Origin: Candidatus Omnitrophota bacterium
GTDB taxonomy: Bacteria; Omnitrophota; Gorgyraeia; Zapsychrales; Fredricksoniimonadaceae
Length of the DNA: 64,000 nucleotides
Reading direction: 5' to 3'
Assembly (NCBI GenBank): GCA_015233335.1
Contig: JADFXX010000006.1
Location: forward strand, 1,237-65,236
Shown piece after piece: positions 11,614-64,000 of this stretch (position 1 is its first letter; every line of letters begins with the position of its first letter). Made by a program: the position numbers and the translations under genes. Under the pieces are notes generated by a model. That model did not search any database, was not told the DNA's origin, and saw only the letters and a program-made list of their open reading frames with translations.

Positions 11614-11758
11614 CAGCGGGTCCTGTCTAGGCCTTGATGTTAAGGTGCTCCTAATTAAAATGCGTACGTTACAGCCTTATAGAACGGAGATCCCCTTGTT
11701 CGCCCTAACATCAGTCACCGTCCGCCCCTTAACATCAATTCCGAGCCACCCGCCGCCG
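11614..11758. repeat. Family A structured intergenic element, copy 1 (divergent subtype)
   Basis: Termini GCGGGTCCTGTC.../...GCCACCCGCC. Helix CCTTGATGTTAAGG / CCTTAACATCAA. Conserved AAGGTGCTCCT. Lies between the hisS stop and the aspS start. Confidence 0.75.
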
Positions 11759-15648: not shown

Positions 15649-15654
15649 AACTGT

Positions 15655-16254: not shown

Positions 16255-16286
16255 ATAAAAACCCCGTCGGAGAAATCCAACGGGGT
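16255..16286 (-). terminator. Intrinsic terminator after yceI-family gene
   Basis: Minus strand CCCCGUUGG-AUUUCU-CCGACGGGG followed by UUUUUAUU. Confidence 0.6.
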
Positions 16287-16313
16287 TTAAAATCGGGATA
16301 AAATTCTGGATAA

Positions 16314-18609: not shown

Positions 18610-18639
18610 TTATAGCCTTTGTAACACTACGCAAGCGGG

Positions 18640-18861
18640 CTGCAGGGATAGGATTGTTATTTTTAACTCACTGTCATTTTTAGTTAAAAATTCGTTACTT
18701 TTTGGGGAATCCCGAGCCGAAGGGCGAGGGATGTCTGAACTTGCTTGAGCTCTTTATTTCCAGGGAAATAAAGAGCGAGTTGTTCAGACACCCAAAAAAT
18801 AATGAATTTTTGACGTTAAAAAAATGACCGTGAGTTAAAAATAACAATCCTATCCCTGCAG
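18640..18861. repeat. Family B nested-hairpin element, copy 1
   Basis: Outer stem ctgcagggataggattgttatttttaactcac / gtgagttaaaaataacaatcctatccctgcag. The conserved core is shared with 35094-35334. Confidence 0.8.
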
Positions 18862-18882
18862 CCTCACCGCAAATTCTAGGAA

Positions 18883-24747: not shown

Positions 24748-24791
24748 GGTTTTATGGTTCTTTGTAGTTTTATGCTGGTCAGGTAATCTAT

Positions 24792-24980
24792 GTGCGTGGG
24801 ATGGAAGGGCAGCTATTATGTTTTCGGAACATTCGGGGATTTTTGGCCAAAAGTTTGCGAGGATTTACAACAAATTTTTTCCAAATGAAGAGAATCTTTA
24901 GAAAAAATTTGTTGTAAACCGAAGCAAACGGCCAAAATATCCCGTTCCGAGAACATAATAGCTGCCCTTCCATCCCTGCA
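24792..24980. repeat. Family C foldback element, copy 1
   Basis: Arms gggatggaagggcagctattatg... / ...cataatagctgcccttccatccc. Apical loop ccaaatgaagagaatctttag. Lies between the lspA stop and the lgt start. Confidence 0.8.
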
Positions 24981-25010
24981 TGACGTACCCATTTAAAATC
25001 CCAAAAAACT

Positions 25011-29577: not shown

Positions 29578-29630
29578 ATATCCCTCCGTCTTTATTTAGG
29601 TTCTGTCAAAAGTACGCTTAGGTCATTGAC

Positions 29631-29772
29631 GCGGGGCCTGTCCTTAGCCTCAATACTAAGGTGCTCCTCCGTCGGGGGCTGCCCTGACGGAAGCTCCGAT
29701 GGTGGTTTGCCCTCAACCGCCCCTTTGAACAGGGGCCGTGCGCGCCTTAGTATTGAGGCTAAGGACACCCGC
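29631..29772. repeat. Family A structured intergenic element, copy 3
   Basis: Termini gcggggcctgtcc...ggacacccgc. 20-bp helix ccttagcctcaatactaagg / ccttagtattgaggctaagg. Lies between the proC stop and the mtnP start. Confidence 0.8.
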
Positions 29773-29784
29773 TAATCCACATAT

Positions 29785-30573
29785 TTATTTAGCAAGTTTT
29801 CCGGAGCGCTTTCTTGCGGCGCTCAAAGCAGCCTTCATTAACTTTTCAAACACATTATTTTTAAAGAACACCTTCATGGCCGCCTCTGTCGTGCCGCCCT
29901 TGGATGTGACTTTGGCGCGTAACTGGGCGGCGTCCAATGAGCCGGCCTTTAATAAATGGGCACTTCCAAGTAAAGTATTATAGACCAATAGCTTGGCTTG
30001 CTCTTTGTTAAAACCCAATTTTTCAGCCGCGGCGGTCCATTTTTCGACCAGTAAAAACACATACGCCGGCCCGCTGCCTGAAACGGCGGTCAAGGCATCC
30101 ATCTGGGCTTCCCTGACAACGACGGTCCGGCCGATCGTTCCTAAAATGGTCTCTGCTAGTTTTAAATCCGCCGGTTTGGCATAACGGCCTCCCGATATGC
30201 CGATCGTCCCCTCTCGGATCAACGCCGGTAAATTGGGCATGGCACGCACCACTTTTGTCTTGCCGCCCAAATGCTTCTCAAAATATCTTGTTGTCAGTCC
30301 CGCGGCAATCGAAATAAACAGTTTCTTTTCAGGCGCAGTGACTTGTTCTAAAAGGGGTGCCATATCCTGCGGTTTGACTGCCAGAATAAGCACGCCTGAG
30401 GATTCTACCACTTTCGTGTCCCCAACGACAATGTTGTGGTATTTTTCTTTCAAATATTTCACACGTGCGGGATTTGATTCACAAATATGCACATCATACT
30501 TGGGAGCAAGCCCCTTAATCAAAGCCTCCCCCATATTACCGCCGCCGATCAATCCGATTGTCTTCTTTGTCAT
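29785..30573 (-). CDS. proC: Pyrroline-5-carboxylate reductase
   Basis: 262 aa with Rossmann motif IGLIGGGNMGEAL and C-terminal SKGGTTEAA. Confidence 0.9.
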   Translation of the reverse strand: MTKKTIGLIGGGNMGEALIKGLAPKYDVHICESNPARVKYLKEKYHNIVVGDTKVVESSGVLILAVKPQDMAPLLEQVTAPEKKLFISIAAGLTTRYFEKHLGGKTKVVRAMPNLPALIREGTIGISGGRYAKPADLKLAETILGTIGRTVVVREAQMDALTAVSGSGPAYVFLLVEKWTAAAEKLGFNKEQAKLLVYNTLLGSAHLLKAGSLDAAQLRAKVTSKGGTTEAAMKVFFKNNVFEKLMKAALSAARKRSGKLAK

Positions 30574-32086: not shown

Positions 32087-34885
32087 TTATTTTATACTAC
32101 CCGAGTCATCTACAAAAGGAATTTCTAAATTAAATATCTCGGCCGTGATAAACTCCAGGGCTTGCTTGTAAGCTCCCAGACGCTCTTGACTGTTTTTAGC
32201 CCCTGAGGGATCAAAAAACAGGTCCATACTTGTTGTCCTTAAATAGTAAAGAGCGCTGTTAACACAACACCCGGGAAATTGCCGGCATAAATAATCCGCG
32301 TACAAGGGCATCTGGAATGATTTAACATGCTCGCGGATATAGTCACGGTTTAATTTAAGCCCGGGAATCCCGGAAATGTCTTGGGGCATGCTCTCCACAG
32401 AGCCTGTTTTATAATCTAAAATTAAAATGGTTCCGTCAGTCAATTCATCAACACGGTCAACCCTGTAGGTCCAATGCACCTTTTGGCCTGCCAGTGTGAG
32501 GGTCTCTTCAAACTTCTTTTCTACCCAAAGCACCTTTTGGACCTGATCCCGGCAACGGGCGGCTTCAAAATTTAAAAACCTTTCTAGTCTTGTTTTTAAG
32601 ACCGTTTCCATCAAAAAAGCATCGCTGCGCCCTGCGCGGCCGAAGACAGCGGCAAACTTGCTTTCGTAAATTTTCTGGAAATATTTACGGAAAGTTTCAT
32701 CGAGCAATGGTTTTTTCCCGACAAACCCGCCAAACGCTTCCTCAAGCAGGTCATGAATGAACGTACCAATATGACGAGCCTCGGGATTGTCCAATAAATC
32801 ATCCTTGGGCCTCAATCCCAGAATATACTGGCAATAAAAAGCGTACGGATTTTTGAGATACGTGTTGATGCTGGTGGAAGAAAACCTGAAACTTTTAAGA
32901 TATTCCAGCATCGATGCTGTTTTGGGGATGCTTCGGCTTTTCTTTTCTACGGAAACATCAAAAGCTCCCCTGATGATCTCAAGGCCCCCTATCACACCCA
33001 AACGCTGTTCCTTCTCCCAGATGAGTTCTTCCAAAAACCGGCTTCGCACGCGGTCATTGTTCTGCTGATAGATCAGATGCACGTTTTGGGCCGCACTGAT
33101 TAAGCGCATGAAACCATAGCGCTGGATCTCTTCTTCCAGCTCAAGACGGTCAAGATCCAGTTTGATCATCACCTCCCGGGGTATCAAGGGCTCATAAATG
33201 TTTAAATTAGGCAACAGGCCTTCATTGACGTCCACTACGATCACATTCTTAAAATTCAAAGCACGGGTTTCAAAAAGCCCTAAAATCTGCACGCCCTTGA
33301 GCGGTGAGCCTGAAAACGCCACCATTTCGGCCGACAAACGCTCTTTTAAAACCCGGAACAATTCCCTGGGCTCGAAGACCTCCCGGGCAAAGCTGCAGGA
33401 TGCCAATTCATCAGCAATGTCCTTCATACGCAGGGCAATCTCGGCGTTAAACGGATATTGATCCATGGCGCTATTGCTTTGCATCAAATCGACAAACCCT
33501 CCCAAGGCCCGGGCCAAATCCTCCGGAGAACATATATTTTCAAAATCTTTAAAAAATACTTGATGGACCAAGTGCGCCTCTTTCTTGAGTTCACTTAAAG
33601 AAACGCTGACATCCATCGCCTGCAAGGTTTCAAGAACCAAACTTAAAAGCTTCTCATCCCGGATAATTTCGCCTAAATCCAAAAATATGCGGCCGGACAG
33701 GTCGCTCAATACCTCACCTTTGAGCACTTCTTCTATTTTTGAAACCAACACACGCGTAAGACCGGGTTTATCTGCGGCACTCAAATTCCTGACCAGAGCC
33801 TGCCCTAAGAGGCGCAAATAGTCCCTGGTATAATACAGCGAGCCCTTACGGTGATTCTGGGCTTCTATCACCAATGTCAAAAGCGTATATAAAGCGCTGC
33901 GTTTAAGCGGATACCCCATGGATATATTAAATTCCCCGAGCTCCTCTCCCAGCGCGGTCAAGAGCGTCAGAAGAAATTCACCGTCGGGCAAAACAATGAC
34001 CGTTGACTCAATATCCCCGATCCCCTGCAGGATCCGGTTGACCATGCCCGCCTGAAGGTGGCTGTCAAAAGCTTCATAGACCTTTAGCTCAAATTTACCG
34101 GGTTTAACCCGGGGACCTTCAAGAATCGGAGTCCCAAAAGTCTTGGCAATGCGCTCAAGTGCCGGCCAACGCCTCTGATCACCCTGCATGAACAGAACTG
34201 CTGAGGCCCGCCCATAAATATTCCTGATAACCGCATTTTCAGTCCGGTGAAGATAAAAGAAATTGCAAAATAAGATTTCATCGAAGGGACTTAAGTCACA
34301 GGCACTGACACGGCGTGAGGCCTCTAGGTATCTAAACCCGCGCGGGGCTAATTGCCGCTGTTGAAGATGCCGGTGATAGGCCCCCCGCAATACAAACAAA
34401 TTCATCAGAAGCTTATTGATATCTTCGGGTACGCTGTAACCTATTTGGGCGTGCTCTTTAATGCGGCTCAAGGATTCCGACGGCACATCCTCCAGATCCA
34501 ACTGCTCGATAAAATGAAGGATCTCCCGGGCCCATGGTAAAAACTGGGCGAAAGTCTCGCGATTGTGACAAACCCAAGGGCATAGTTCACGCGCTAACCG
34601 ATAAATGGTATAGCAGTGGTCCAGTTCACTGCCCGCTGAAAACGGCTTTAGGCCATACGCCACATAAGCCATCCAGTCATCGATGGTAAAAAACTTGGGC
34701 GGCACAAATGCACGGCCGATGCGGCGCGCCAATTCCTTCTTGATAAACAGCTGGGGACGCCGACCGCCGAAAACAAGACATAGTCGGGAGAGATCCCCGC
34801 CCTTCTCACTATAATAACGATAGATATAGTCCACTACATGAGGGAGAAACTCTTCGGTAAATGGAACTGTAATAATCTTGCTCAT
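32087..34885 (-). CDS. AddB-like PD-(D/E)xK nuclease subunit (no Walker A)
   Basis: 932 aa. C-terminal RVDRVDEL...ILILDYKTGS nuclease motif. Cysteines (FYCQY...LCRQFPGCC) are compatible with an Fe-S staple. Follows the UvrD-like subunit. Confidence 0.7.
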   Translation of the reverse strand: MSKIITVPFTEEFLPHVVDYIYRYYSEKGGDLSRLCLVFGGRRPQLFIKKELARRIGRAFVPPKFFTIDDWMAYVAYGLKPFSAGSELDHCYTIYRLARELCPWVCHNRETFAQFLPWAREILHFIEQLDLEDVPSESLSRIKEHAQIGYSVPEDINKLLMNLFVLRGAYHRHLQQRQLAPRGFRYLEASRRVSACDLSPFDEILFCNFFYLHRTENAVIRNIYGRASAVLFMQGDQRRWPALERIAKTFGTPILEGPRVKPGKFELKVYEAFDSHLQAGMVNRILQGIGDIESTVIVLPDGEFLLTLLTALGEELGEFNISMGYPLKRSALYTLLTLVIEAQNHRKGSLYYTRDYLRLLGQALVRNLSAADKPGLTRVLVSKIEEVLKGEVLSDLSGRIFLDLGEIIRDEKLLSLVLETLQAMDVSVSLSELKKEAHLVHQVFFKDFENICSPEDLARALGGFVDLMQSNSAMDQYPFNAEIALRMKDIADELASCSFAREVFEPRELFRVLKERLSAEMVAFSGSPLKGVQILGLFETRALNFKNVIVVDVNEGLLPNLNIYEPLIPREVMIKLDLDRLELEEEIQRYGFMRLISAAQNVHLIYQQNNDRVRSRFLEELIWEKEQRLGVIGGLEIIRGAFDVSVEKKSRSIPKTASMLEYLKSFRFSSTSINTYLKNPYAFYCQYILGLRPKDDLLDNPEARHIGTFIHDLLEEAFGGFVGKKPLLDETFRKYFQKIYESKFAAVFGRAGRSDAFLMETVLKTRLERFLNFEAARCRDQVQKVLWVEKKFEETLTLAGQKVHWTYRVDRVDELTDGTILILDYKTGSVESMPQDISGIPGLKLNRDYIREHVKSFQMPLYADYLCRQFPGCCVNSALYYLRTTSMDLFFDPSGAKNSQERLGAYKQALEFITAEIFNLEIPFVDDSGSIK

Positions 34886-34898: not shown

Positions 34899-35044
34899 GC
34901 AGGTCCTGTCTCGGACTTGCCATTAAGGTACTCCTAATTGAACCGCGTTTGTTAAAGCCCTACAGAACGGTGGTTTCCCATAACAAGCCCCTTGGGCAGT
35001 CACCGTCCGCCCCTTAATGGCAAAACTCCAAGCCACCCGCCGCA
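34899..35044. repeat. Family A structured intergenic element, copy 2 (divergent subtype)
   Basis: Begins caggtcctgtctcgg. Helix cttgccattaagg / ccttaatggcaa. AAGGTACTCCT junction. Ends gccacccgcc. About 13 nt upstream of the addB-like start. Confidence 0.75.
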
Positions 35045-35093
35045 ATGTACAAAGAAAAGTAGTGCCTGTCCCTACTTTTTAAGCGTTTCCTTG

Positions 35094-35334
35094 CGTGCAT
35101 TGCAAGTGATAAATTTGTTATTATGAGCGACCTGTCATTTTTTAGTCAAAAGGTCTTTATTTTTTCGGGAATCCCTCGACTTTTTTGTCGAGGGATGGCT
35201 GAACTTGTTTGTGCCTTAAAGTTCCAGAGAACTTTAAGGCGAGTTGTTCAGCCACCGAAAAAAAAAGAGCTTTTGACGTTAAAAAAATGACCGCGAGCGA
35301 ATAATAACAAATTTATCACTTGCAATGCATGCGC
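35094..35334. repeat. Family B nested-hairpin element, copy 2
   Basis: Outer stem gcattgcaagtgataaatttgttattatgagcg / cgcgagcgaataataacaaatttatcacttgcaatgc. The conserved core (gtcattttt..., ggaatccc..., ctgaacttg..., cgagttgttcag..., ttttgacgttaaaaaaatgacc) is shared with copy 1. Confidence 0.8.
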
Positions 35335-35339: not shown

Positions 35340-38300
35340 TCATTGATCTTGTAAATATAAAACATGCCCCGAAATTTTATACTTCGGGTAAAATTGTCGG
35401 ACTAATTCGATATAGCCTTCCATCTGCTTTTGATGTTCGCCGGAAGCGGCGCCGGACAATTTATAGTCTACGATCCAGACTTCGTCCTTGAGCACGATCA
35501 GGCGGTCTATGCGCTTGGTGTCTCCGCATGCATTCACAAATTCTTTTTCGCATAAAACCTCTGCATCAGCCGGAAGATAAAAGAACCGTCGCACGTCCTG
35601 ACGGTTAATAAAAGAAAGGATCTGCGCAATAGCGCTCTCCCCTTCCTTATCTTCCCCACAAGGACGAGGGATTAGCTGACAGGAGCAATTCCATGCTTCT
35701 TTGATTGCGGCCTCGGCATTGCTGTCGCTCAAAGACCTGATGAACATCAAGACCGCATGATAAAATTCCCCCTTGCGCGCCCGGTCCGCGGATCTCGCAG
35801 GACGGTCCAAAAATTCTTCCCGTAATCCCTTCCACCCAGAAAATTTGAAAGGTTTGATCTTCCAGCGAGTTTCTTGGGGGACATGAGACGCCAGACGTTG
35901 GCGGGGCGTGCCTGTGCCCAGACATTCCTCCGGTATCAAAAACCGCGCTGGATTAACGCTGTTGCCTACTTTAGAAGGCACAAAAATATAAAGCTCCTCG
36001 ATGGCACGCGTTAACGCCACATAAGCGGTATTCAATTCAATCAAAAAAGCTTTTTTATATTCCTGCTCATACCTGTCCTGCAGTTGAGGACAAAACTGCC
36101 GGTAGCTTTCCTTAAGCCTTAAAAGCCCCATACCCTCTTGTTTAATATCCAGAATATAGGCCTGACTGCCATCGCGTCCGCCGCTTGAAGCTTTAATATC
36201 CATCTCGAAATACGGCACGATCACCACCGGGAATTCCAGCCCCTTTGCTTTATGCACCGTTAACACCCTGAGGGCATCCACATCCGCCATCGGGACGAAA
36301 CGCTCTTCTCCCTCAAGCTTCTCATAATAATCCAGAAAATAAGACAGGTCACAGCTTTGAGATTCCTGCCTTTTGACCAACTCCAAAAAATGCATGAAGA
36401 ATCCCAGAGAACCGGGGAAATGTTTTTCTAACCCCAAGCGCCCAATGATTGCGGCTGTTAGCTCGTATAGAGGATAAATCCCTGCCTGCCCTAGAGATTC
36501 TTCAAAGAACGACTCCCATGCCGCCGGAAATATATCACGGAAATGTTTGTAAAAACATACGGCTTTGTTTTGCTTGGAAAGCAGAGCACAGTCAAAAAGA
36601 AAATCGCGCAAGACTTCGGGGGCGAGACCCGTGGCTTTGGGTAGAAGCTCTCCTAAACAAAACTGCGCAAAAGCATTATTGTCCGTGGGAGAAGCTAAAA
36701 AAGTCAACAGGTCTATCAGCTCAGCGATCAGCGGATTATTCTTAATATCGCTCGTCCGCTCGGACTGGGCCCAAAGCCCTTCTTGCAAAAGCCATTGGGT
36801 GATCTCTTCGACTTCCTCATTGCCGCGGGTCAAGACTGCGATGTCTTTTAGAGAAAAACGCCTGCGCAAATCCGCCACTAGAGCTGTCAGCTGTCCACGA
36901 AGCTCCAAGGCCCTTTCCTGTTTAACACGTCCCTGCAGATGAACCACCCTCACCACCCCGCCGGCTAAATCCTTGCCCGGCAATTGTTGGGCGTTGGCAA
37001 AGGTATCGGCAATTGACGCAAATTCACTTTCTGAAAAATGAATATCCTTATGACGTTTGCTGCCTTTAGAATCTTGCAGACGCCGATCTAAAAAGCCGCG
37101 TAAATTGTCCAAACTAAACACGCGGTTATTAAACCTGATGATCTGTTCATAACTTCGGTAGTTGTGGTCAAGGCTCCTGACTTTGACATTAAAATGCGCC
37201 AGCTGGCTCTGTAAGGCATCGAATAAACGGCTCTCCCCGCCGCGAAAGGCATAGATCGCCTGCTTCTTGTCCCCCACATAAAAAAGAGAACCGCCATGGG
37301 CCAACGCTTCCTCAACCATTGTTGATAGATTGCGCCACTGGGAAAGTGAAGTATCTTGAAACTCATCTATCAAATAATGTTCGAAGCGTGCGGCCAGACG
37401 GAAATACAACTCCTCAACCGTGACCAACCCGTCCTCAAAAAGAGAAGCGGCGCGACGGTTAAGCTCTTCTAAGAACAGCACATCATCCCTTTGGGACAGC
37501 CGTCCAAAACAGGATAAGAGCCGGCCGAATAAAACAACATACGGGTCAAACATGCTTTGCGCTTCCCAAAGACAAAGATCATGGATTTCCCCCCGAAGTT
37601 TTAGCCACAACTTCTCAAGCGAGGGGGAAATCGTCCCCCCTTTATTCATAGGAAAATCCTCTTTAGCCCAACAGGCGTTAAGTTGATCCACATCAAAAAC
37701 ACCTTTTTGACAATCCACCAGCTCCTCTAAATGATCAAGGAGATTTTTTTTAGTCTCTGGGGGACAAATGTTCTTTAACTCCTGCATGAGAGCGTAAATT
37801 CTTTTCTTACGCGATAAAGAGTCCTCATCCGACGGGGATACTAAAAAGGCCTTCTGGTAAGTGTTGTATTGCCTGAATAATTCACTGATGACTAAAAGAA
37901 GGTCCTCCTTGGGAAACCACCCCCAACGGTTTTCCAGAAATAAATACTGGCGCACAAAATCCTCGAAAGCCCGGCGCAGGGATATATCATGGTCCGCTTC
38001 TTCTAAAAGCTCATCAAGGCTTAGCTGCAGGTATTCCTTGGAGTTGCGCTGGATCTTAAAGCGGGCTGAAAGCCCTATCTTGAATGAACAGCCGGATAAT
38101 AATACATTAATAAAACTATCAATGGTCTGGACCCCAAAATAATGATACTGACGGATCACATCATTCATCACAGCAAAAGCCAGAGGACTTGCAGCGGCAG
38201 AATCCAATCCCAAGGGCTCAAGGATGTCCCGGACTTCAAAAAGTTTTAATTGTTGAAGGGCAATGCGTTTGAGGAAATCCAAAATCCGGGATTTCATGGC

Positions 38301-38507
38301 CCAGGCGGCCTTATTCGTAAAAGTAATGGCCAAAATAGACTGTATGGCCGTCATTCTAAGCCCCAAGGCAGAAAAATCCCGGGATTGCCGGGCGGCTAAA
38401 TAAAGGCTTAGCTGTACATATCGGCGGGCCAGCTCATAGGTCTTGCCGCTGCCGGCGGACGCCTCAACGACAAGCACTTGCGGACTTTCTAAAAAACTAC
38501 TTTTCAT
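35340..38507 (-). CDS. UvrD/AddA-like helicase-nuclease subunit
   Basis: Walker A EASAGSGKTYEL, UvrD helicase motifs and a C-terminal PD-(D/E)xK (IDRLIVLKDEVWIVDYK). Likely start MKSSFLESPQ at 38507; the track ORF extends to 38609. Confidence 0.8.
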   Translation of the reverse strand: MKSSFLESPQVLVVEASAGSGKTYELARRYVQLSLYLAARQSRDFSALGLRMTAIQSILAITFTNKAAWAMKSRILDFLKRIALQQLKLFEVRDILEPLGLDSAAASPLAFAVMNDVIRQYHYFGVQTIDSFINVLLSGCSFKIGLSARFKIQRNSKEYLQLSLDELLEEADHDISLRRAFEDFVRQYLFLENRWGWFPKEDLLLVISELFRQYNTYQKAFLVSPSDEDSLSRKKRIYALMQELKNICPPETKKNLLDHLEELVDCQKGVFDVDQLNACWAKEDFPMNKGGTISPSLEKLWLKLRGEIHDLCLWEAQSMFDPYVVLFGRLLSCFGRLSQRDDVLFLEELNRRAASLFEDGLVTVEELYFRLAARFEHYLIDEFQDTSLSQWRNLSTMVEEALAHGGSLFYVGDKKQAIYAFRGGESRLFDALQSQLAHFNVKVRSLDHNYRSYEQIIRFNNRVFSLDNLRGFLDRRLQDSKGSKRHKDIHFSESEFASIADTFANAQQLPGKDLAGGVVRVVHLQGRVKQERALELRGQLTALVADLRRRFSLKDIAVLTRGNEEVEEITQWLLQEGLWAQSERTSDIKNNPLIAELIDLLTFLASPTDNNAFAQFCLGELLPKATGLAPEVLRDFLFDCALLSKQNKAVCFYKHFRDIFPAAWESFFEESLGQAGIYPLYELTAAIIGRLGLEKHFPGSLGFFMHFLELVKRQESQSCDLSYFLDYYEKLEGEERFVPMADVDALRVLTVHKAKGLEFPVVIVPYFEMDIKASSGGRDGSQAYILDIKQEGMGLLRLKESYRQFCPQLQDRYEQEYKKAFLIELNTAYVALTRAIEELYIFVPSKVGNSVNPARFLIPEECLGTGTPRQRLASHVPQETRWKIKPFKFSGWKGLREEFLDRPARSADRARKGEFYHAVLMFIRSLSDSNAEAAIKEAWNCSCQLIPRPCGEDKEGESAIAQILSFINRQDVRRFFYLPADAEVLCEKEFVNACGDTKRIDRLIVLKDEVWIVDYKLSGAASGEHQKQMEGYIELVRQFYPKYKISGHVLYLQDQ

Positions 38508-39210
38508 CGATGGAGAGCCAAATAGAATCTTCCAGAATTTCGCGGATGACGGCAATGGACGCTTCCAGTGATCTCTGTCCGGGCTTGAGACCCCAATCAA
38601 GGGTGTCACGGCCGTAAGAATCCAGCTTATCTAAGAGCTTCTGACGCTGCTGGGCGGTCACGGCCAAACGATGACCGCGGCCATTGACATTTTTATCGCT
38701 GATCAAGACCTTGGTCATTAATACAGTGGCCTGAACGATATCTCTGTTGATGTCTTTGCGTTTTAAGGCCAAGACACGCTGGGCCTTGACGAATTCAATT
38801 TCTTTGGGCCTTGTCGCCTGACCTGCGGTATTGAGCTCATTCCATTTTTCCCACAGGACTTTTTCCTGATCATTGACATCAATTTCACGAACGCAGTCTT
38901 TGACGACCATATTGGCGACCCTGCGTATCAGAGCATTGGGTGAAGCAAGGTACTTGACTAGATAATTCTTGATAATGCGAAGATCAGTGTTATCAAGCGC
39001 TAAGTCATTGATGCTGGCCTTGATCAGTTTGACCTTTTTGTTCCAACGGTCATCAATGTCTTTCAAATAGCTCAATGCCGTAATATAACTGCGGGCAAAC
39101 TCGTATTTTTTGATATCCGGGTTGTTTTTGCGAAATTCGTCAACGGCGAAGGCCGGATGAAAGCTCATGAAGCCATAAACGGCAAGCAATAACAGCAGGC
39201 GTCGGAACAT
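38497..39210 (-). CDS. Hypothetical secreted protein
   Basis: 237 aa with signal peptide MFRRLLLLLAVYGFMSFHPAFA. Helical composition and no recognised motif. Confidence 0.5.
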   Translation of the reverse strand: MFRRLLLLLAVYGFMSFHPAFAVDEFRKNNPDIKKYEFARSYITALSYLKDIDDRWNKKVKLIKASINDLALDNTDLRIIKNYLVKYLASPNALIRRVANMVVKDCVREIDVNDQEKVLWEKWNELNTAGQATRPKEIEFVKAQRVLALKRKDINRDIVQATVLMTKVLISDKNVNGRGHRLAVTAQQRQKLLDKLDSYGRDTLDWGLKPGQRSLEASIAVIREILEDSIWLSIDEK

Positions 39211-41926: not shown

Positions 41927-42105
41927 TTATAGAAACCAGGAACCATTCCTCCACTTTGAGTATAAACTATAAATCATCGCCAATCAACGAAAAATAAAAA
42001 AACGTTAATGCCCTAAATATATAAAAAACGCTGGAAATTGCTTCATTGGACTGTATAATTAAAATTGCAATCATACTTAACCTTATCATCATTAAGGAGT
42101 GGAAT

Positions 42106-42507
42106 ATGTTTACTCAAAAAAGGACAAAGGGCTTTACACTCGTGGAAATCATGATCGTGGTTGCGATCATCGCACTGCTTGCCGCGATCGCTATCCCCAA
42201 CCTGCTACGCTCCAAAATGTCTTCCAATGATTCTTTGGCCAAGGCGACTTTACGGGCAATTTCAACTGCGGCTGAATCCTATGGAACAGCCAATAACGGC
42301 AACTACCCCGGAGCTGTTGACTCGTTGACAACCGCAACTCCCCCATTTCTTAACACTAACTATTGCACCGGTAATCTGATTTCCGGATATGTTTATGCCT
42401 GCGGCATGGCCAGCACCGGTTATACGGTCACCGCCACACCCGGAACTGTCGGTACCACTGGTTCTACCACCTATACCATCACAACCGGTGGTGTTTTAAC
42501 TCCGTAA
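42106..42507 (+). CDS. Type IV pilin / T2SS pseudopilin-like protein, copy 1
   Basis: Start MFTQKRTKGFTLVEIMIVVAIIALLAAIAIPNL carries the prepilin G/F cleavage site and Glu+5. GGAG RBS. C-terminal Cys pair (YCTGNLISGYVYAC). Confidence 0.85.
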   Translation: MFTQKRTKGFTLVEIMIVVAIIALLAAIAIPNLLRSKMSSNDSLAKATLRAISTAAESYGTANNGNYPGAVDSLTTATPPFLNTNYCTGNLISGYVYACGMASTGYTVTATPGTVGTTGSTTYTITTGGVLTP

Positions 42508-42567: not shown

Positions 42568-42630
42568 CCTAATAATAGTGTATACTTAATTCGGAGTCAT
42601 AATTAACCATATAACCGTAAGGAGGGTACT

Positions 42631-43032
42631 ATGTTTACTCGGAGAAAAGAAAAGGGCTTTACACTCGTGGAAATCATGATCGTAGTTGCAATCATCGCTT
42701 TACTCGCGGCGATCGCTATCCCCAACCTGCTGCGCGCCAAAATGTCTTCCAATGATTCTTTGGCCAAAGCGACTTTGCGGGCAATTTCTACCGCATCTGA
42801 GTCCTATGGAACTGCCAATAACGGTAATTATCCAGGGAGCGTCAACTCGTTGACAACCGCAACTCCCCCGTTTCTTAACACTAACTATTGCACCGGTAAT
42901 CTGATTTCCGGATATGTCTATGCCTGCGGCATGGCCAGCACCGGTTATACGGTCACCGCCACACCCGGAACTGTCGGCACTACGGGTTCTACCACCTATA
43001 CCATTACAACCGGTGGTGTATTAACTCCGTAA
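42631..43032 (+). CDS. Type IV pilin / pseudopilin-like protein, copy 2
   Basis: MFTRRKEKGFTLVEIMIVVAII... Only a handful of aa differences from copy 1. GGAGGG RBS. Confidence 0.85.
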   Translation: MFTRRKEKGFTLVEIMIVVAIIALLAAIAIPNLLRAKMSSNDSLAKATLRAISTASESYGTANNGNYPGSVNSLTTATPPFLNTNYCTGNLISGYVYACGMASTGYTVTATPGTVGTTGSTTYTITTGGVLTP

Positions 43033-43684: not shown

Positions 43685-43753
43685 AATTTCCCTCTCTTTC
43701 CCTTCAAGTTTCTGCCAAAAGTTCGCATGCCTAAAATTCATTTGCCTGATTAC

Positions 43754-43895
43754 GCGGGGCCTGTCCTTAGCCTCAACATTAGGGTGCTCCTCAGGCGAGG
43801 GCAGACCTAAAGGAAGCTCCAATAGTAGTTATCCCTTAATCGCCCCCTTGTGCAGGTGCCGTGCGCGCCCTAACATTGAGGCCAAGGACACCCGC
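43754..43895. repeat. Family A structured intergenic element, copy 4
   Basis: Termini gcggggcctgtcc...ggacacccgc. Helix ccttagcctcaacattagg / cctaacattgaggccaagg. Confidence 0.8.
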
Positions 43896-43978
43896 TGATC
43901 CTCGTACTTATAAAGCTTTTGATACTACTTCTTTAAGCCTAGCAAAAATTTCTTGATCAGGCAAGTCATCTTGAAAAA

Positions 43979-55715: not shown

Positions 55716-55899
55716 TTTATTCTCCTGGTTGATCCTTATATTTGCAATTGCATAGGGTTTAATAAATCTTTATATCTATCCACTTAATGGGGCCAACTAG
55801 ACCTCATTTAGTTGAAGTATAACATATGACTTTTCAAAATGCCAATCGACATTAAAAATTATTATAAGTCATTGGATTGTATGTAGTTATGAAATAAGA

Positions 55900-55964
55900 A
55901 GATTGCTTCGTCACCCTGCGGGCTCCTCTCAATGACACCACAAGAAGATCTCCCCGCAATGACA
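55900..55964. repeat. Short repeats AGATTGCTTCG...CAATGACAC (1.5 copies)
   Basis: agattgcttcgtcaccctgcgggctcctctcaatgacac plus agatctccccgcaatgacac, directly flanking the ctaB stop. Confidence 0.6.
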
Positions 55965-56876: not shown

Positions 56877-57878
56877 TCATCGTTTTGTAAATATGGTTTT
56901 AAATTGACCCCATGTTAAAGGGGCCGCACGCAAGACCATTAAAAAAGATACCCCTAAAACAATAGCTCCCAGTGTCACATGCAGGGTCGTTGTATAACTT
57001 TCCTTATGCGATAAAACAGTGGCGGCGCCTAAGGTAATCTGAATGAACACCGCCATATTCAACCAAAACAAAGATTGCAGGATCATAGGCCGGTTGAGGC
57101 ATTCTTTATAAACGATTTTGTTCAACCATAATAATTTTAAGAAAATCAATAGGGCCCAGAAGCGGTGTAAAAAATGAATGACCACCTGCCCCATGGTGAC
57201 CTCATCCATATTATTTTCAAAACGCCAGGCATTGATCCTGTTGAGCATCGCCTGATCAAAGGTCGGGATCAAGCCTCCTGCCATGGTGGGAAAATCCGGT
57301 ATGGCTAGGCCCGCCTGAGCATGGCGCATAAAATTTCCGATCACCAGCTGAATATAGATCATCCCCAATAAAAGCAGTGAAAAACGTAAAACCCGAGGGT
57401 TGGAGTTATCCCTACCGCTTTGATTTCTTTCTTGACTTAAAGCGTACGCTATGAAAATCAGAATGAGCAAGAATGTCTGAGCCAAGACCCCGTGAAAAAC
57501 GGCCAGCCATACCGGTAAAAAATATCTGACGGCCAAGCCTCCTAAAATGCCCTGTGCCGTCACTGTCACGAACGCGGCTATCCCAAGTCGTTTGATCCAT
57601 GCAGGCAACTCTTTTAGTTTGAGAAGCCATAGCGTTAAGATCAACGTCAGAAGTCCGATGATGGAAGCCAGCATGCGATGGGTGTGTTCGTACTTGATGC
57701 CTCCTGCCATTTTGTCCAAAGGATAAGCGAACATGAATTTGCCGTAGGTGGTGGGCCAATCAGGGACTGACAAGCCGGATTCGGTACTTTTGACCAAAGC
57801 GCCTAGCAGGATCAGAAGCAATGTTAAAAGGCAAAGGATTTTTGAAAAATGTTTTAGAGCTGTCAATTGAGATGCCAT
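56877..57878 (-). CDS. ctaA: Heme A synthase (COX15/CtaA family)
   Basis: Eight-TM protein with conserved His pairs. Likely start MASQLTALKHF; the 32 codons of the track ORF upstream of it read into family A copy 5. Confidence 0.8.
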   Translation of the reverse strand: MASQLTALKHFSKILCLLTLLLILLGALVKSTESGLSVPDWPTTYGKFMFAYPLDKMAGGIKYEHTHRMLASIIGLLTLILTLWLLKLKELPAWIKRLGIAAFVTVTAQGILGGLAVRYFLPVWLAVFHGVLAQTFLLILIFIAYALSQERNQSGRDNSNPRVLRFSLLLLGMIYIQLVIGNFMRHAQAGLAIPDFPTMAGGLIPTFDQAMLNRINAWRFENNMDEVTMGQVVIHFLHRFWALLIFLKLLWLNKIVYKECLNRPMILQSLFWLNMAVFIQITLGAATVLSHKESYTTTLHVTLGAIVLGVSFLMVLRAAPLTWGQFKTIFTKR

Positions 57879-57923
57879 AAAAAACTCCTTTAGCTTAGGA
57901 CTTACTCGAAAATGATGCATGGC

Positions 57924-58064
57924 GCGGGGCCTGTCCTTAGACTCAATACTAAGGTGCTCCTCCGTCGATGGCAACCCTAACGGCAGCTTCTACGGTAGTT
58001 CCACTTAACCGCCCACTTGGGCAGGGGCCGTGCGCGCCTTAGTATTGAGTCTAAGGACACCCGC
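57924..58064. repeat. Family A structured intergenic element, copy 5
   Basis: Termini gcggggcctgtcc...ggacacccgc. Helix ccttagactcaatactaagg / ccttagtattgagtctaagg. Confidence 0.8.
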
Positions 58065-58119
58065 TAATCCTTGTACTTATGAAAAGTAGCGTCTTCCCTG
58101 CTTTTTGTCAGGTAAGCTA

Positions 58120-58309
58120 TGTGCGCGGGATGGAGGTACAGCTATTATGTTTTTGGCACAATAAGGAATTTTTTGCCAAAAGTCTTCTTAATTTTACGGC
58201 AAGAATGTTCCAAATAAAGAGAATCTTTAGAACATTGTTGCCGTAAATTTAATAAGACGGCAAAAATATTCCGTGGCGAAAACATAATAGCTGTACCTCC
58301 ATCCCTGCA
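58120..58309. repeat. Family C foldback element, copy 2
   Basis: Arms gggatggaggtacagctattatg... / ...cataatagctgtacctccatccc. Loop ccaaataaagagaatctttag. Confidence 0.8.
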
Positions 58310-58338
58310 CGGCACACCCATTCAAGATTTAAAGAGCG

Positions 58339-60627
58339 TTATAGTTTAAGCAACTTTGGGATCCACCAGAATAGTCCGGCTAACAGGACTATGATCGATG
58401 TGCCTCCCAGCAGCATAAAGAAGAATTCTTTTGGATCTATTCCCGGATTAATAATTTTCGTGCGATCGACTCCGTTTAGATATAAGACATAGCTTTCCAG
58501 ATCAGCGATCTGGGCTTGGGTTAATGCATGGGAATCGCCGAAATTGGGCATATTGGGGCCTCCCTCGGTGTTGGGGATGCCGTGCTGGATATAACGGTCC
58601 ACATGCTCTGCAAAAACCTGCGCGTCTTCGTTTTTGACGGCAGGATCTATCGGATTAAGAGCAGGGACGCCTCTCGGAGCGTTAAATCCCGGAGTATTAG
58701 GGATGCCGCGCGGGCCGTGGCACATAATACATGACTGATGGAATAAAATAGCTCCGTGTTCACGGTCGCCGATAAGACCTACGGATTGGGGAGCGATCCC
58801 ATTTGTGCTCGAGGGTGGATTGCCCTGCCCTTCAGCGGCTTGGGCCTGTTCTTCTGCTTTAGTCACAGGCGTTGGTTTTCTCGTTGCAAGACTGCTTAAG
58901 AAAAGTGTCATCGCATCGATCTGGTCATCTTTGAGACGATTGGCGTAAGACGGCATAATGCTCATAGGGTTATGCTGCTGCGGCGCTGTGAGTTGGACTT
59001 TAAGCCAATCTTGGGCGGGTTTATCCTTGGCTATGGCCATGATCAAATCCGGGCCTGATTTATTGCTCGGCCGTCCTTGGATGGTGTGACACTGAACACA
59101 TCCTTGAGTGTTAAATAATTGTTCGCCATATTTGATCAAAACGTCCTTGTTATCGACTGATTCTTGGGCTGTTGTCGGCTTAGGCGGCGGCAAAGGGACG
59201 GAAGCAGGCTTTAGATTTTCCAGATAACCTAATAAGAGTTCAACATTTTGATCACTTAAATCGGAATATGGCGGCATGATGGTGCGGGGATTATGCAATT
59301 GAGGCGCTATCACTTGGATAGAAAGCCACTGATGTGAACGATTGTTCCCGCGGGCCATGACCAAATCCGGACCCTGTTTATTGCCGGCGATCCCCGTCGT
59401 TGAGTGACATTCGGTACAGCCTAATGTTTTAAATAACTGCTGGCCTGTCAGTTTTTTATCGACATTAACCAAGGCCATAGTCTTGGGGATATCCAGATCC
59501 GGTAATTTCTTATTGGTCAGATCTACGATCGTCCGATTAGGGGCCTCCATTTGGGCCGCTTCGGCAGGGCTTCTATAAATATAGCCCAGCCATGTCAAAT
59601 AAAGAATCATGCCTACAAAAGTAAAACCGCCTAAAATGATAAACCCTCGTTTAAAAGGGTTTTTCTGCGGGTTAGAATCCGCAAAAGGCAGGGAAGCAAA
59701 AAGCAAAATGATCATCAAAGGCACACCCGCCGTGCCCAAAGGCTCCAGAGGCCCGGGAAGAAATTTTAATATTTGATAAAGGAACAGGAAGCTCCACGCT
59801 GGTTTTGGAGTTATCAACGTATCGGTGGGGTCCGCTAACCCGGAAAACGGCGGGGGGAAAAAAGCAGATAAAAAAACCAGCAGTAAAAAAATCAAAAAAG
59901 AGACCAGAACATCTTTGAAAATCTGTTCCGGCCAGAAATATCCTATTTTTTTGCGTTTGTCCTCATCCCACGGCCCGGACTCACCGAACTGGCGAAAAGC
60001 GATCAAGTGCAGCGTGACAAATAATCCGACCATGGCCGGAATAATGGCCACATGAAGGACGTAAATACGTAACAATGCCATCTGCCCCATTTTATCAGCC
60101 CCCTGCAGGATCATTTGTGTCATGGGGCCGACAATGGGAACTGAACCGGCTATACCAATGCCTACCTGCCCCGCCCAATAACCATTCTTGTCCCAAGGCA
60201 GAACGGGTCCGGTGAACATGAACATCGCGGTCAGAACAATAAGAACTATCCCGATGAGCCATACCATTTCTCTGGGTTTTTTATAGGAGCCCCAGATGAA
60301 TACACGCAGAACATGCAGCCCCACAACGATCGTAAACAAAGTCCCGCCCCAATAATGGATGCCATGCACAAGCCATCCAAAAGGAACTTGGAGGCGCAGA
60401 TAGTTCAAACTTGTGTACGCGTAATCAATGGTGGGCACATAATAAAAAAGCTGCCAGACCCCTGTGACAATCTGCATGGTCAAAAGAAACATGCAAGCAC
60501 TGCCTAAGGTGTAGGAAAATCTGGTGCCGCCGGGGATCTCTTCATGCAAGAATTCACTAAAAAATGTGATCAATGAAGTACGCTCATTGATCCAGCCTAT
60601 CATTTTTTGTAACAAAGGCGTTTTCAT
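58339..60627 (-). CDS. Cytochrome b fused to three c-type cytochrome domains
   Basis: N-terminal ~380 aa is cytochrome b (GSYKKPREMVWLIG, PAWSFLFLYQILK). Three CxxCH sites follow (CTECH, CVQCH, CIMCH), then a C-terminal TM. Confidence 0.8.
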   Translation of the reverse strand: MKTPLLQKMIGWINERTSLITFFSEFLHEEIPGGTRFSYTLGSACMFLLTMQIVTGVWQLFYYVPTIDYAYTSLNYLRLQVPFGWLVHGIHYWGGTLFTIVVGLHVLRVFIWGSYKKPREMVWLIGIVLIVLTAMFMFTGPVLPWDKNGYWAGQVGIGIAGSVPIVGPMTQMILQGADKMGQMALLRIYVLHVAIIPAMVGLFVTLHLIAFRQFGESGPWDEDKRKKIGYFWPEQIFKDVLVSFLIFLLLVFLSAFFPPPFSGLADPTDTLITPKPAWSFLFLYQILKFLPGPLEPLGTAGVPLMIILLFASLPFADSNPQKNPFKRGFIILGGFTFVGMILYLTWLGYIYRSPAEAAQMEAPNRTIVDLTNKKLPDLDIPKTMALVNVDKKLTGQQLFKTLGCTECHSTTGIAGNKQGPDLVMARGNNRSHQWLSIQVIAPQLHNPRTIMPPYSDLSDQNVELLLGYLENLKPASVPLPPPKPTTAQESVDNKDVLIKYGEQLFNTQGCVQCHTIQGRPSNKSGPDLIMAIAKDKPAQDWLKVQLTAPQQHNPMSIMPSYANRLKDDQIDAMTLFLSSLATRKPTPVTKAEEQAQAAEGQGNPPSSTNGIAPQSVGLIGDREHGAILFHQSCIMCHGPRGIPNTPGFNAPRGVPALNPIDPAVKNEDAQVFAEHVDRYIQHGIPNTEGGPNMPNFGDSHALTQAQIADLESYVLYLNGVDRTKIINPGIDPKEFFFMLLGGTSIIVLLAGLFWWIPKLLKL

Positions 60628-62217: not shown

Positions 62218-62820
62218 TTAGAGCAGGTACAGGATTGAAAATAAAAAGATCCAAATGATATCCACAAAATGCCAATAAAGACCGGCCACTTCAAGGCGAT
62301 TGATGAACCATTGTTTATTGATGGTCCTCAATCGGGTGCCGGGGCCGGCATAATAAATATTGATCCCGATGCCGGCCAAGATGTGTAAGGCATGCAAACC
62401 CGTTAACAAAAAATAAAGGGCCAGAAAAACACTTGTTTTAGGGTATTCCTGACGGCTGAAATGTTGGTAATATTCGATCCCCTTGAAAAACAAAAAAAGA
62501 CCAGCCAGGGATATCACCCACCACATCAGTCTTTTATATTTGGCCAAATCATCCGCTTTCAATGCAACCCAGGCGCGTATGAAAAATATACTGGATGACA
62601 AAAGAATAACGCTGTTCAATGCGCCTATGGGGACGTTCAGATAATCTGATTGCTGAGGCCATGAAAAAGATCCCACTCTTAGAAGGATATACGCAGAAAA
62701 CAGCGAGCCAAAAAGCATGATCTCTGAAGCTAAAAAAAGCCAGAGCCCAAACTTGGCATTATAAAGCCCGGTATCTTCGCGGGCTTCTACTTTATATGGA
62801 ACTAGTTCTGTGTCATGCAT
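62218..62820 (-). CDS. ctaE: Cytochrome c oxidase subunit III
   Basis: 200 aa with five TM segments and YWHFVDIIWIFLF motif. Confidence 0.85.
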   Translation of the reverse strand: MHDTELVPYKVEAREDTGLYNAKFGLWLFLASEIMLFGSLFSAYILLRVGSFSWPQQSDYLNVPIGALNSVILLSSSIFFIRAWVALKADDLAKYKRLMWWVISLAGLFLFFKGIEYYQHFSRQEYPKTSVFLALYFLLTGLHALHILAGIGINIYYAGPGTRLRTINKQWFINRLEVAGLYWHFVDIIWIFLFSILYLL

Positions 62821-62837: not shown

Positions 62838-63023
62838 CGTGGGGCCTGTCTTGAGCCTCAACACCAACTGGTCCCCCCTGCTTTGGTCGTTAACGACCAA
62901 GGGGGGATTAAGGTGCTCCTCCTCCGGGGACAGCCCTGACGGCAGCTTCAACGGGGGTTTCACTGGACTGCCCACTTGGGCAGGTGCCGTGCGTGCCTTA
63001 ATATTGAGGCTCAAGACACCCGC
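62838..63023. repeat. Family A structured intergenic element, copy 6 (with nested ~45-nt hairpin insertion)
   Basis: Termini cgtggggcctgtc...agacacccgc. The helix cttgagcctcaa...attaagg / ccttaatattgaggctcaag is interrupted by cccccctgctttggtcgttaacgaccaagggggg. Confidence 0.8.
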
Positions 63024-63068
63024 TCTTTGCGGTAATACTGAAATATGTTAAACCATTGCTAATCATTA

Positions 63069-63250
63069 GCAGGGATGGATAGCTGCTATTATGTATTCGG
63101 CACATTAAGGAATTTTTCGCCAAAAGTCTTCTTAATTTTACGGCAAGAATGTTCCAAATAAAGAGAATCTTTAGAACATTGTTGCCGTAAATTTAAGAAG
63201 ACGGCGAAAATATTCCGTGCCGAATACATAATAGCAGCTATCCATCCTTC
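63069..63250. repeat. Family C foldback element, copy 3
   Basis: Arms gcagggatggatagctgctattatg... / ...cataatagcagctatccatcc. The core is nearly identical to copy 2. Confidence 0.8.
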
Positions 63251-63275
63251 ACTAGCAACAAGCATGACTAAATGT

Positions 63276-64000
63276 CTAAATCTCCTTTTGATCTTGCGGG
63301 CTGTAATCTTTAGCCGCTCCCTTAAGACTGTAACTATACGGTCCTCGATAAACGTGGACCGGTTTGGTAAAATTCCCATGGGGCGGCGGCGTTGGAGTGG
63401 CCCATTCAAGGGTCGTTGCCTCCCAAGGGTTATCTGAGTTGACTTTTGGTCCGTTAAACATGCTATAGAAAAAATTAAAAATGAAGGCAAACTGCGCAAT
63501 GGCAAGAAACCACGCGGCCCAGGAGATGATCACATTCCAGTAAAGCACATTATGCATAAATAAATACGTCACCCCTCCGTCATATAATCTGCGGTTGACC
63601 CCGGCCAATCCCTGAAGAAGCATAGGAAAAAAGATCAGGTTCATGGCGATCAAGGTCGGCCAAAAATGCAGTTGGCCTAATCTGTCGTTCATGAAACGGC
63701 CAGTAACCTTAGGGAACCAATAATAAATGCCGGCAAATATCGCCAAAATAACCCCCGGCGCCACCACATAATGAAAATGCCCGATTACATAATAGGTGTC
63801 ATGCAAAGGGATATCGGTTGCCGCAAGCCCCAAAGGCAGGCCGGTCAACCCGCCAAAACCGAACATGGGCAGGAACGCCAAGGCAAAAAGCATGGGTGTG
63901 GTAAAACGGATCGAACCTCCCCACAGGGTAATGAACAAGGAAGTGATCACAATGATCGAGGGTATGGAAACGATCATGGTGGTAGTTTGGAAAAATGCCG
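63276..64000 (-). CDS. ctaD: Cytochrome c oxidase subunit I, C-terminal part (5' end beyond window)
   Basis: HDTYYVIGHFHYV and GLAGVNRRLYD motifs. The ORF remains open to nt 64000; the track lists only the portion from an internal Met. Confidence 0.9.
   Translation of the reverse strand, partial: AFFQTTTMIVSIPSIIVITSLFITLWGGSIRFTTPMLFALAFLPMFGFGGLTGLPLGLAATDIPLHDTYYVIGHFHYVVAPGVILAIFAGIYYWFPKVTGRFMNDRLGQLHFWPTLIAMNLIFFPMLLQGLAGVNRRLYDGGVTYLFMHNVLYWNVIISWAAWFLAIAQFAFIFNFFYSMFNGPKVNSDNPWEATTLEWATPTPPPHGNFTKPVHVYRGPYSYSLKGAAKDYSPQDQKEI

Follow-up and report, generated by a model that had tools for sequence, protein, structure and literature searches.

Among described repeats, the closest analogue of the one reported here is bcr1 from the Bacillus cereus group, a non-coding, multi-copy element of approximately 155 bp whose distribution is not conserved between relatives (PMC3184786). 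Short direct repeats flank it, it is transcribed together with its neighbours, and compensatory changes keep its RNA fold while some copies are destabilised (PMC3184786). Long hairpins inside operons are known from the Correia elements of Neisseria (also called Correia repeat enclosed elements, CREE, or nemis), which are foldbacks of about 100-160 bp found in intergenic and intra-operon positions and co-transcribed with the genes around them (PMC2649163). RNase III binds these hairpins and cleaves or protects them, thereby changing the expression of neighbouring genes (PMC2649163). [quoted passage not shown] Here, we describe a repeat of about 140 nucleotides (nt), element A, and long foldbacks of two families, B and C, which together occupy three gene junctions in 64,000 nt of contig JADFXX010000006.1 from a Candidatus Omnitrophota bacterium (hereafter the window). 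Omnitrophota is an uncultured phylum with mostly very small cells. Coordinates refer to the whole 64-kb window, and elements and genes are read along the minus (coding) strand.

At three minus-strand junctions, a stop codon is followed by a long foldback, element A and the next start codon, the foldbacks being C, C and B, respectively (Table 1). The genes on either side are coxI and coxIII, a fused cytochrome b/c gene and ctaA, and an addA-like and an addB-like gene; all six identities were confirmed with Pfam. These composite spacers measure 455, 460 and 454 nt. The median spacer over the 55 minus-strand ORF junctions of the window is 11 nt, and 28 of these junctions have spacers of at most 25 nt. 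A sequence-only reading of this stretch had pointed to the same order at the three junctions, and to spacers of about 400-460 nt where other genes are tightly packed, and both observations are borne out by the coordinates and the Pfam identities. We propose that the three spacers probably arose in a single Omnitrophota lineage, as independent, non-autonomous repeats accumulated in junctions where the ancestral genes had been tightly spaced or had overlapped.

The junctions of related organisms carry much of this argument. In what follows, labels of the type L001-L163 denote Omnitrophota metagenome-assembled genome (MAG) contigs, wetland-type metagenome contigs and loci of relatives that were compared with the window. 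In five related lineages, whose CoxIII is 78-83% identical to that of the window, the operon runs coxI-coxIII-coxIV-coxII-Rieske-cytochrome b/c, and ctaA comes next in the L151/L152 lineage. The 3' end of the window coxI can be aligned with relatives whose coxI abuts or overlaps coxIII. Here coxI and coxIII either overlap (..GGAGATTTGATG..) or are separated by 3-23 nt, with neither element present, and only 22 nt lie between cytochrome b/c and ctaA in L151. A covariance model of A, run over 88 kb of the relatives' cox loci, found no copy. As these junctions are tight and lack A, C3 with A6 and C2 with A5 are lineage-specific additions to junctions that had been translationally coupled.

The addA/addB junction adds a difference in time. 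In L163 (AddB 71% identical) the two genes overlap by 4 nt. In L162, which is syntenic with the window (AddB 75% identical), a family B foldback is found at the same position, and it aligns with B2 at a mean column identity of 76% over the entire junction alignment. The roughly 215 nt of non-coding DNA between this foldback and the addB-like start (L162:9790-10000), which take the position of A2 in the window, gave no match to the A model even with filters off. Since L162 has B without A, B and A arrived at different times. Homologues of the addB-like gene carry the Joint Genome Institute (JGI) name helicase/nuclease subunit B, and the window protein matches one from a 'Candidatus Omnitrophica bacterium' MAG at NCBI with 100% identity. 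For the window CoxIII, an exact-protein look-up gave nothing, although the homology database does contain that protein.

The sequence-only reading had interpreted the fixed order, together with a spacing of about 40-50 nt, as a sign of one modular unit rather than independent insertions. The order holds and recurs beyond chance, but the gap between foldback and A varies from 46 to 62 nt, and a common linker is found at two junctions only. These are C2-A5 and B2-A2, which share a hairpin segment of approximately 35 nt resembling the 5' arm of one form of A (type 1, described below). The C3-A6 and C2-A5 linkers have no sequence homology. Compared with other type-1 5' arms, the A6-side part of the C3-A6 linker (63024..63050) includes a degenerate remnant of such an arm (..TTTCAGTATTACCGCAAAGA). 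Because the two linkers are unrelated although C2 and C3 are 91% identical across 180 nt, foldback and A were not copied jointly. A composite mobile unit, which had also been suggested, is correct as far as the elements are mobile and type-1 A is itself composite, but it does not extend to foldback and A travelling together.

A related explanation is that foldback and A form a functional composite between coupled genes, acting on the stability of mRNA segments, on processing (e.g., by RNase III) or on translation of the downstream gene. The constant order and the enriched adjacency described below would fit such a role, as would the hairpin segment common to two of the linkers. Moreover, the coxI/coxIII spacer is extremely structured as RNA (-218.8 kcal/mol, z = -14.3 compared with shuffles), and the binding of Neisseria Correia hairpins by RNase III, with cleavage or protection, offers a precedent (PMC2649163). 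However, every part is also found alone, the linkers at the two cox-operon junctions are unrelated, the relatives' operon runs without either part, L162 carries B without A, and the A copy at this very junction is decayed. We therefore regard a functional composite as very unlikely, and the same evidence speaks against the modular unit. The wider suggestion of a functional spacer for coupled genes finds no support beyond its positional association, which is real; A also lies upstream of unrelated housekeeping genes, and most of its 92 located copies stand alone.

The state of A6 can be seen from several features. Scoring 55.6 bits where the other five copies reach 112-135 bits, it is the most decayed copy in the window. 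Its closing helix carries a mismatch (CCCAC), and a GC-rich hairpin of 44 nt (CCCCCCTTGGTCGTTAACGACCAAAGCAGGGGGG plus a tail) is nested at 62863-62906 in the 3' strand of its long helix. This hairpin has no second copy in the window and was not found in any other locus searched. On the other side of the spacer, 28 nt separate the coxI stop from the outer C3 arm. Only 18 nt lie between A6 and the coxIII ATG, and they contain AGAGGA, so that coxIII has its own Shine-Dalgarno sequence 10 nt before the ATG and immediately past A6. Promoter and terminator scans of the cox-operon spacers gave no terminator, no promoter signal stronger than in shuffled sequence and no signal where the elements begin or end, and the TTGACA in the 3' arm has no -10 partner. 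A search for transfer RNA and transfer-messenger RNA (tmRNA) found none.

Counting the repeats across the window shows that the families are associated without depending on each other. A census with a covariance model built from A, with filters off, and a repeat search for the foldbacks gave exactly six copies of A, each on the minus strand, along with three of C and two of B. A stands alone three times, C once and B once. Three of the five foldbacks lie in the six A-bearing junctions among the 55 (hypergeometric P ~0.007), which means that the association between foldback and A is real but not obligatory. The 568 kb of loci compared contain 24 complete foldbacks, of which seven stand immediately 5' of an A and none immediately 3'. 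C-like foldbacks or fragments are immediately 5' of A in L003 (dnaJ), L027 (atpD), L043 and L052, and a B fragment holds this position in L037. A fourth family, D, with inverted ends AGGCTGATGCCGATATGTTTTTTCTGCG ... GCAGAAAAAACATATCGGTGTCAGCC, does so in L020, L038 and L114, and further plus-strand copies are found in L053 (ending at ~2875), L090 (ending at ~4483) and L093 (ending at ~5137). C also occurs at a distance from any A (L010, L020 and L075), and so does B (L047). In L147, a C (9004-9155) and a B (9187-9419) form a tandem 5 kb from the nearest A, i.e., foldbacks also cluster with one another. Co-occurrence above chance is upheld in the window, and the order recurs in the wider loci, although many copies are solo or distant.

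The foldbacks themselves differ in what they conserve. Family B has about 230 nt conserved in five loci, with internal hairpins that covary. Family C has a conserved centre of approximately 130 nt, and its outer arms vary between copies, each copy remaining self-complementary; the variation is found even inside one MAG (L003, L010 and L027). Both families have long inverted arms, occur in multiple copies and contain no ORF. As long hairpins inside operons they resemble the Correia elements, but in these foldbacks the outer arms differ between copies around a conserved centre, and neither a TA duplication nor an integration host factor (IHF) site was identified. In clustering as palindromic repeats in composite arrays within operons, the elements also recall REP sequences and bacterial interspersed mosaic elements (BIMEs). 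REP sequences, by contrast, are simple hairpins of 20-40 nt that are mobilised by REP-associated tyrosine transposases (RAYT) and leave no target duplications, and A is four times longer with a branched core. REP elements can stabilise upstream mRNA. A motif of the form (A/T)TGACA(G) is common to B and the type-1 arms, and the A sequence itself contains it as GACAGG.

Mobility is best documented for the type-1 form of A, to which four of the six window copies belong (A3, A4, A5 and A6). Here, the core lies within a foldback frame of about 60 nt (TGTGTCAAAAG ... CTTTTGACAGAAC), with arms of approximately 30 nt. The 5' arm reads (GG)T(A/T)GTGTCAAAAGTTTTATGAAAACATGGATTA and the 3' arm GTCATCTAGAAGCGGAATTTTGACAGAAC, and TGTCAAAAG and CTTTTGACA within them are inverted repeats. 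The frame ends share an inverted core of 8-9 bp, TGTCAAAA(G), which is short, and subterminal on the 3' side. The whole element is approximately 200 nt long, has no conserved ORF and is present in about 20 copies across the loci. Direct repeats of 5-11 bp are found exactly at its outer ends, for example CCATATTTAA (L013:4807), TTTTTAAAT (L013:6483), AAAGAGGG[G/A]GT (L017) and CCAGGGT (L007). In a boundary-specific test of 13 type-1 copies, with mismatched flanks as the null, repeats of at least 7 nt occurred at the exact ends in 38% of the copies compared with 0.6% under the null. An unconstrained search for flanking direct repeats did not differ from its null, and only the boundary-specific type-1 test was significant. 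In A5, both arms are variant (5' at 58065-58093, 3' at 57898-57923), and no clear target-site duplication is seen at its ends.

The junction between proC and mtnP provides an empty site. In the window it holds A3 (29600-29783), whose 5' arm is shortened to 11 nt and which has a 9-bp direct repeat, CTAAATAAA, on either side (29784-29792 and 29591-29599). Removal of the element and one repeat leaves TAA-AGACGGAGGGATAT-ATG, and the empty junction in L163 reads TAG-AGCGGAGAAGGTAAT-ATG, which is the same architecture. The junction is occupied by the type-2 form in L001:584-723, L042:132-271 and L162:15167-15329, and this variation in state suggests repeated independent insertion at a hot spot. In the L162 copy, which scores only 28.8 bits, two GC-rich hairpins (GGGGCGGAGCTTGTCTCCGCCC and GGGCCGACACAAGGTCGGCCC) interrupt the 5' half or stand in its place. 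Together with the hairpin in A6 and with insertions in L084 and L106, it shows that repeats nest in repeats. At L017:315-372 (minus strand), a frame of about 58 nt without a core is flanked by GGAGTCGAG and GGAGCGAG. Since the frame exists without the A core, type 1 is a chimera in which a small foldback element holds an A core.

Type-1 A is consequently MITE-like in being short (<500 bp) and multi-copy, in lacking a transposase ORF, and in having inverted termini, target duplications and an empty site. It departs from MITEs in that what the frame carries is a structured module, conserved and strand-specific, and in that no parent insertion sequence is known. No autonomous insertion sequence with type-1 termini turned up in the loci examined, and no collection scan was aimed at it. 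The type-2 form is present or absent between related lineages, and conservation in its flanks is limited to AAATTGCG on the 5' side and (A/T)GG(G/A) on the 3' side.

The conserved fold of A might alternatively reflect spread via an RNA intermediate, as in a retroposon resembling short interspersed nuclear elements (SINEs), with reverse transcriptase supplied in trans. The variable length of the target duplications agrees with this, as do the constant 3' end (..TTTTGACAGAAC) combined with some shortened 5' arms, most clearly the 11-nt arm of A3 beside its clean 9-bp duplication, and the strand-specific fold that tolerates G-U pairs. However, several of the apparent 5' truncations are due to another inserted foldback (L020, L038 and L043), which leaves A3 as a single clean example. 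Furthermore, the frame has short terminal inverted repeats, as in DNA transposons, and moves without the core, and no reverse transcriptase was found nearby. This makes a retroposon highly improbable and the least favoured of the explanations we considered.

A combines mobile behaviour with conservation like that of a functional RNA. In the 568 kb, degenerate pattern scans and additional covariance-model matches located 92 copies. The fold has an outermost closing helix of 5 bp, GCGGG/CCCGC, which is invariant, followed inwards by a conserved asymmetric internal loop with UG(G) opposite (G)ACAGGA, a covarying helix of approximately 18 bp and a GC/GC step. These lead to a multi-helix junction with the invariant strands GCG[G/C]ACGG ... 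AGGAGCACC, in which an AGGAG is both invariant and exposed. The inner domain occurs as several subtypes. It is provisionally modelled as three short hairpins (GCCC-loop-GGGC, GG-GAAA-CC and a variable third), as minimum free energy folds of single copies conflict over this domain. RNAalifold on MAFFT alignments recovers the outer helices only.

Covariation in the helices was evaluated on an unfitted MAFFT alignment of 54 A sequences, all less than 90% identical. In this alignment, 98.2% of the cells in helices are paired, and double changes occur at 12 pairs (105 cells) compared with at most 27 cells when partners are slid by 1-3 columns. None of 500 shuffles matched the observed pairing. G-U pairs are frequent and A-C nearly absent, and the reverse strand scores 13-38 bits compared with 112-135 bits for the forward strand of the five intact window copies; the fold therefore belongs to one strand, the coding strand. 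The junction nucleotides are invariant in 54 of the 54 sequences.

A strict degenerate pattern made from the six window copies matched several Omnitrophota MAGs in a species-representative genome set, with eight matches in a single MAG, nDJH13bin20; high-GC matches in the same scan were set aside as chance. The matches listed for a looser pattern included numerous metagenome contigs of low GC content, mostly of peat, bog and wetland origin. No match was found in the plasmid collection, and the lone match among viral contigs fell on the L063 contig and is put down to chance at high GC. Rfam 15 gave no gathering-level match in the window, and none for A1, A3 and A6 at E values up to 10. The only matches were one of 12.8 bits to PhotoRC-I and chance-level matches of miRNA precursors to the C hairpin, the latter reflecting the long hairpin only. 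A literature search for RNA motifs or repeats in Omnitrophota found no description of A. Element A is an undescribed repeat family that spans the phylum Omnitrophota and has an RNA-like structure. Likenesses to known RNAs, judged by eye, were dropped: a hammerhead core (subtype 2a has CUGAUA..GAA without G8/A9), signal recognition particle (SRP) RNA, the tmRNA 5' end, a kink-turn in the internal loop, and a boxA, as GCTTTAACAA is present in two copies only.

In its mobile behaviour, covarying fold and decayed copies, A has much in common with bcr1. The two have no sequence relationship and come from different phyla. The A junction has invariant unpaired strands, whereas bcr1 is a two-hairpin cruciform, and the duplications of A are 5-11 bp in contrast to a fixed 5 bp in bcr1. 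Unlike both bcr1 and the Correia elements, A has a branched core whose junction strands are invariant and duplications that vary in length, it lies almost exclusively in the sense direction, with a stop codon before it and a ribosome-binding site after it, and one of its forms is nested in a separate frame. While bcr1 is transcribed, transcription of A is suggested by its operon position and orientation.

The position of A within operons is well defined. The distance from the upstream stop to A is typically 2-20 nt, and from A to the start codon usually 7-55 nt (full range 1-140). Of 89 distinct copies, 63 have genes of the same strand on both sides, and very few lie clearly antisense or at convergent gene ends. 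The genes that follow are an unrelated housekeeping set, i.e., aspS, mtnP, dnaJ, nadC, dnaA, pgk, apgM, gyrB, alaS, ssb, atpD, glnB, purC, lepA, coxIII, ctaA and the addB-like gene. With such diverse downstream genes, A does not look like the marker of a regulon. Two small hairpin repeats, GGATTCCCGCTTTCGCGGGAATGACA and AGATTGCTTCG...CTCGCAATGACA, recur between A and the start codon; loci with them downstream of A are L036, L051, L075, L090 and L109, and they are also present in L060, L106 and L147. Small hairpin repeats of this general kind were noted between A and the start codon in L036, L051, L066, L090, L109 and L147.

These observations bear on whether A could be a new cis-acting RNA (a riboswitch, a ribozyme or a protein or ribosome site) that acts on the downstream gene and has been spread by frames, with the foldbacks incidental. 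Invariant junction nucleotides, covarying helices and a strand-specific fold are what such an RNA might show, and so is a nearly constant sense position just before a start codon with an exposed AGGAG. A also precedes aspS in four lineages (the window, L066, L130 and L147) and has no Rfam match. Nevertheless, the downstream genes belong to no common pathway, and no conserved terminator or sequestering platform follows A, which thus shows neither the coherent regulon nor the conserved expression platform of a riboswitch. A terminator made of a CCGC/GCGG hairpin and a U-run after type-1 A was considered and dropped, as it is not conserved. In addition, the same junctions are empty in close relatives, disrupted copies are tolerated, and copies within a genome are more alike than orthologous copies, as is the case for mobile repeats. 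A cis-acting role on the downstream gene therefore seems distinctly unlikely.

We return to independent accumulation as the preferred explanation. The elements would insert between a stop codon and the ribosome-binding site of the next gene and persist mainly in the sense orientation, where transcription of the operon may read through them as part of the mRNA. The downstream gene would retain or regain a Shine-Dalgarno sequence directly after the element, as seen for coxIII. A limited set of permissive junctions could tolerate and collect both kinds of element, and the order of foldback before A most likely reflects such shared insertion-tolerant sites. To the 5' side of A, where several of them abut or interrupt its 5' arm, foldbacks might be either tolerated or targeted. 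The targeting mechanism is putative; none of the large foldbacks lies between A and the start codon. Co-transcription, which position and orientation suggest, is an inference, as are selection on where and how the elements lie and whatever they may do to the stability or processing of mRNA.

Several points weigh against this explanation. The adjacency on the 5' side (seven versus none, and P ~0.007 in the window) exceeds what simple co-tolerance would give and could reflect a functional or mechanistic link, while the counts are biased by loci picked for carrying A. B and C lack convincing target-site duplications and have differing outer arms, which is atypical of classical MITEs; as no duplications were found, 'MITE-like foldback' describes them without demonstrating membership. 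Type-2 A has no inverted termini, and direct repeats around it are no commoner than under the null. A search of the loci for a partner, be it a transposase or a reverse transcriptase, found none. Lastly, a passive passenger would not keep an invariant junction, and selection through mobility or RNA function is needed to explain it. With the junction invariant in all aligned sequences, some activity, either the element's own spread or one at the RNA level, must select for the core. It is possible, though unlikely, that A is both a new functional RNA class and a mobile element, which would place itself between cistrons throughout Omnitrophota and cut, insulate or tune polycistronic mRNAs at hundreds of junctions. 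The core would then be a self-cleaving or a ligand- or protein-binding module, or a recognition structure for RNA-mediated spread.

For annotation, the long spacers that separate coupled genes of respiration and repair give no evidence of a designed regulatory module and should be recorded as repeat pile-ups. Omnitrophota carry dense, small, structured repeats that split genes which once overlapped. Since A unites conservation like that of a functional RNA with clear insertion signatures and has no Rfam entry, it is a candidate for RNA-motif curation. It is usable for testing how well mobile, RNA-like structures are tolerated inside operons, and it could mark Omnitrophota contigs in metagenomes.

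Table 1. Repeats, linkers and flanking genes at the three composite junctions, and solo copies of A, B and C in the window.
Feature	Positions	Strand	Basis or remark
coxI, 3' part, runs off the window	63276..64000 (stop 63278-63276)	-	Pfam COX1, E = 3.4e-47
Foldback C3, perfect 31-nt arms 63073-63103 and 63217-63247	63051..63272	-	repeat search; family C
C3-A6 linker, 49 nt	63024-63072	-	between C3 arm and A6
A6, decayed type-1 A, 185 nt, without 3' arm	62839..63023	-	covariance model, 55.6 bits
coxIII	62218..62820 (ATG at 62820)	-	Pfam COX3; 100% identity with a Candidatus Omnitrophica MAG protein at NCBI
Fused cytochrome b / cytochrome c gene	58339..60627 (stop 58341-58339)	-	Pfam Cytochrome_B, Cytochrom_C
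Foldback C2, arms 58127-58159 and 58273-58305	58107..58328	-	repeat search; family C
A5, type-1, core 57924-58064	57898..58093	-	covariance model, 113.8 bits
ctaA (haem A synthase)	56877..57878 (ATG at 57878)	-	Pfam COX15-CtaA
UvrD-like helicase (addA-like)	35340..38609 (stop 35342-35340)	-	Pfam UvrD-helicase, UvrD_C
Foldback B2, 51-nt arms 35093-35143 and 35282-35332	35093..35332	-	family B; homologous to the L162 B
Short hairpin and T-run between B2 and A2	35054..35080	-	common to C2-A5 linker; like a type-1 5' arm
A2, type-2, 13 nt before the addB-like start	34899..35040	-	covariance model, 126.9 bits
PD-(D/E)XK nuclease (addB-like)	32087..34885 (ATG at 34885)	-	Pfam PDDEXK_1
A1, solo type-2 A, hisS/aspS	11616..11753	-	covariance model, 135.2 bits
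A3, solo type-1, proC/mtnP, core 29631-29772	29591..29792 including repeats	-	covariance model, flank analysis
A4, solo full-length type-1 with both arms, core 43754-43895	43709..43927	-	covariance model
C1, solo family C, junction without A	24778..24999	-	repeat search
B1, solo family B, junction without A	18638..18863	-	repeat search

Other repeats and spacers were observed in the window. Dense direct repeats with a period of 69 nt and its multiples (D1, D3, D4, D6, D8, D10 and D11) fill the first 4 kb, at 757-4159; they suggest a highly repetitive coding region that runs off the start of the window, and no long clean ORF is listed there. Three spacers of 216-302 nt (15439-15654, 16012-16313 and 55716-55964) are not accounted for by A, B or C. 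Beside A4, a 300-nt direct duplication (42093-42392 and 42618-42917, 87% identical) spans two adjacent plus-strand ORFs, 42046-42507 and 42631-43032, which make up the only plus-strand island of the window. Finally, 31339-31638 and 31717-32016 belong to tandem paralogous small genes of 124 and 122 amino acids, whose DNA is 71% identical and whose syntenic counterparts in L162 and L163 carry annotations as receiver domains of response regulators.

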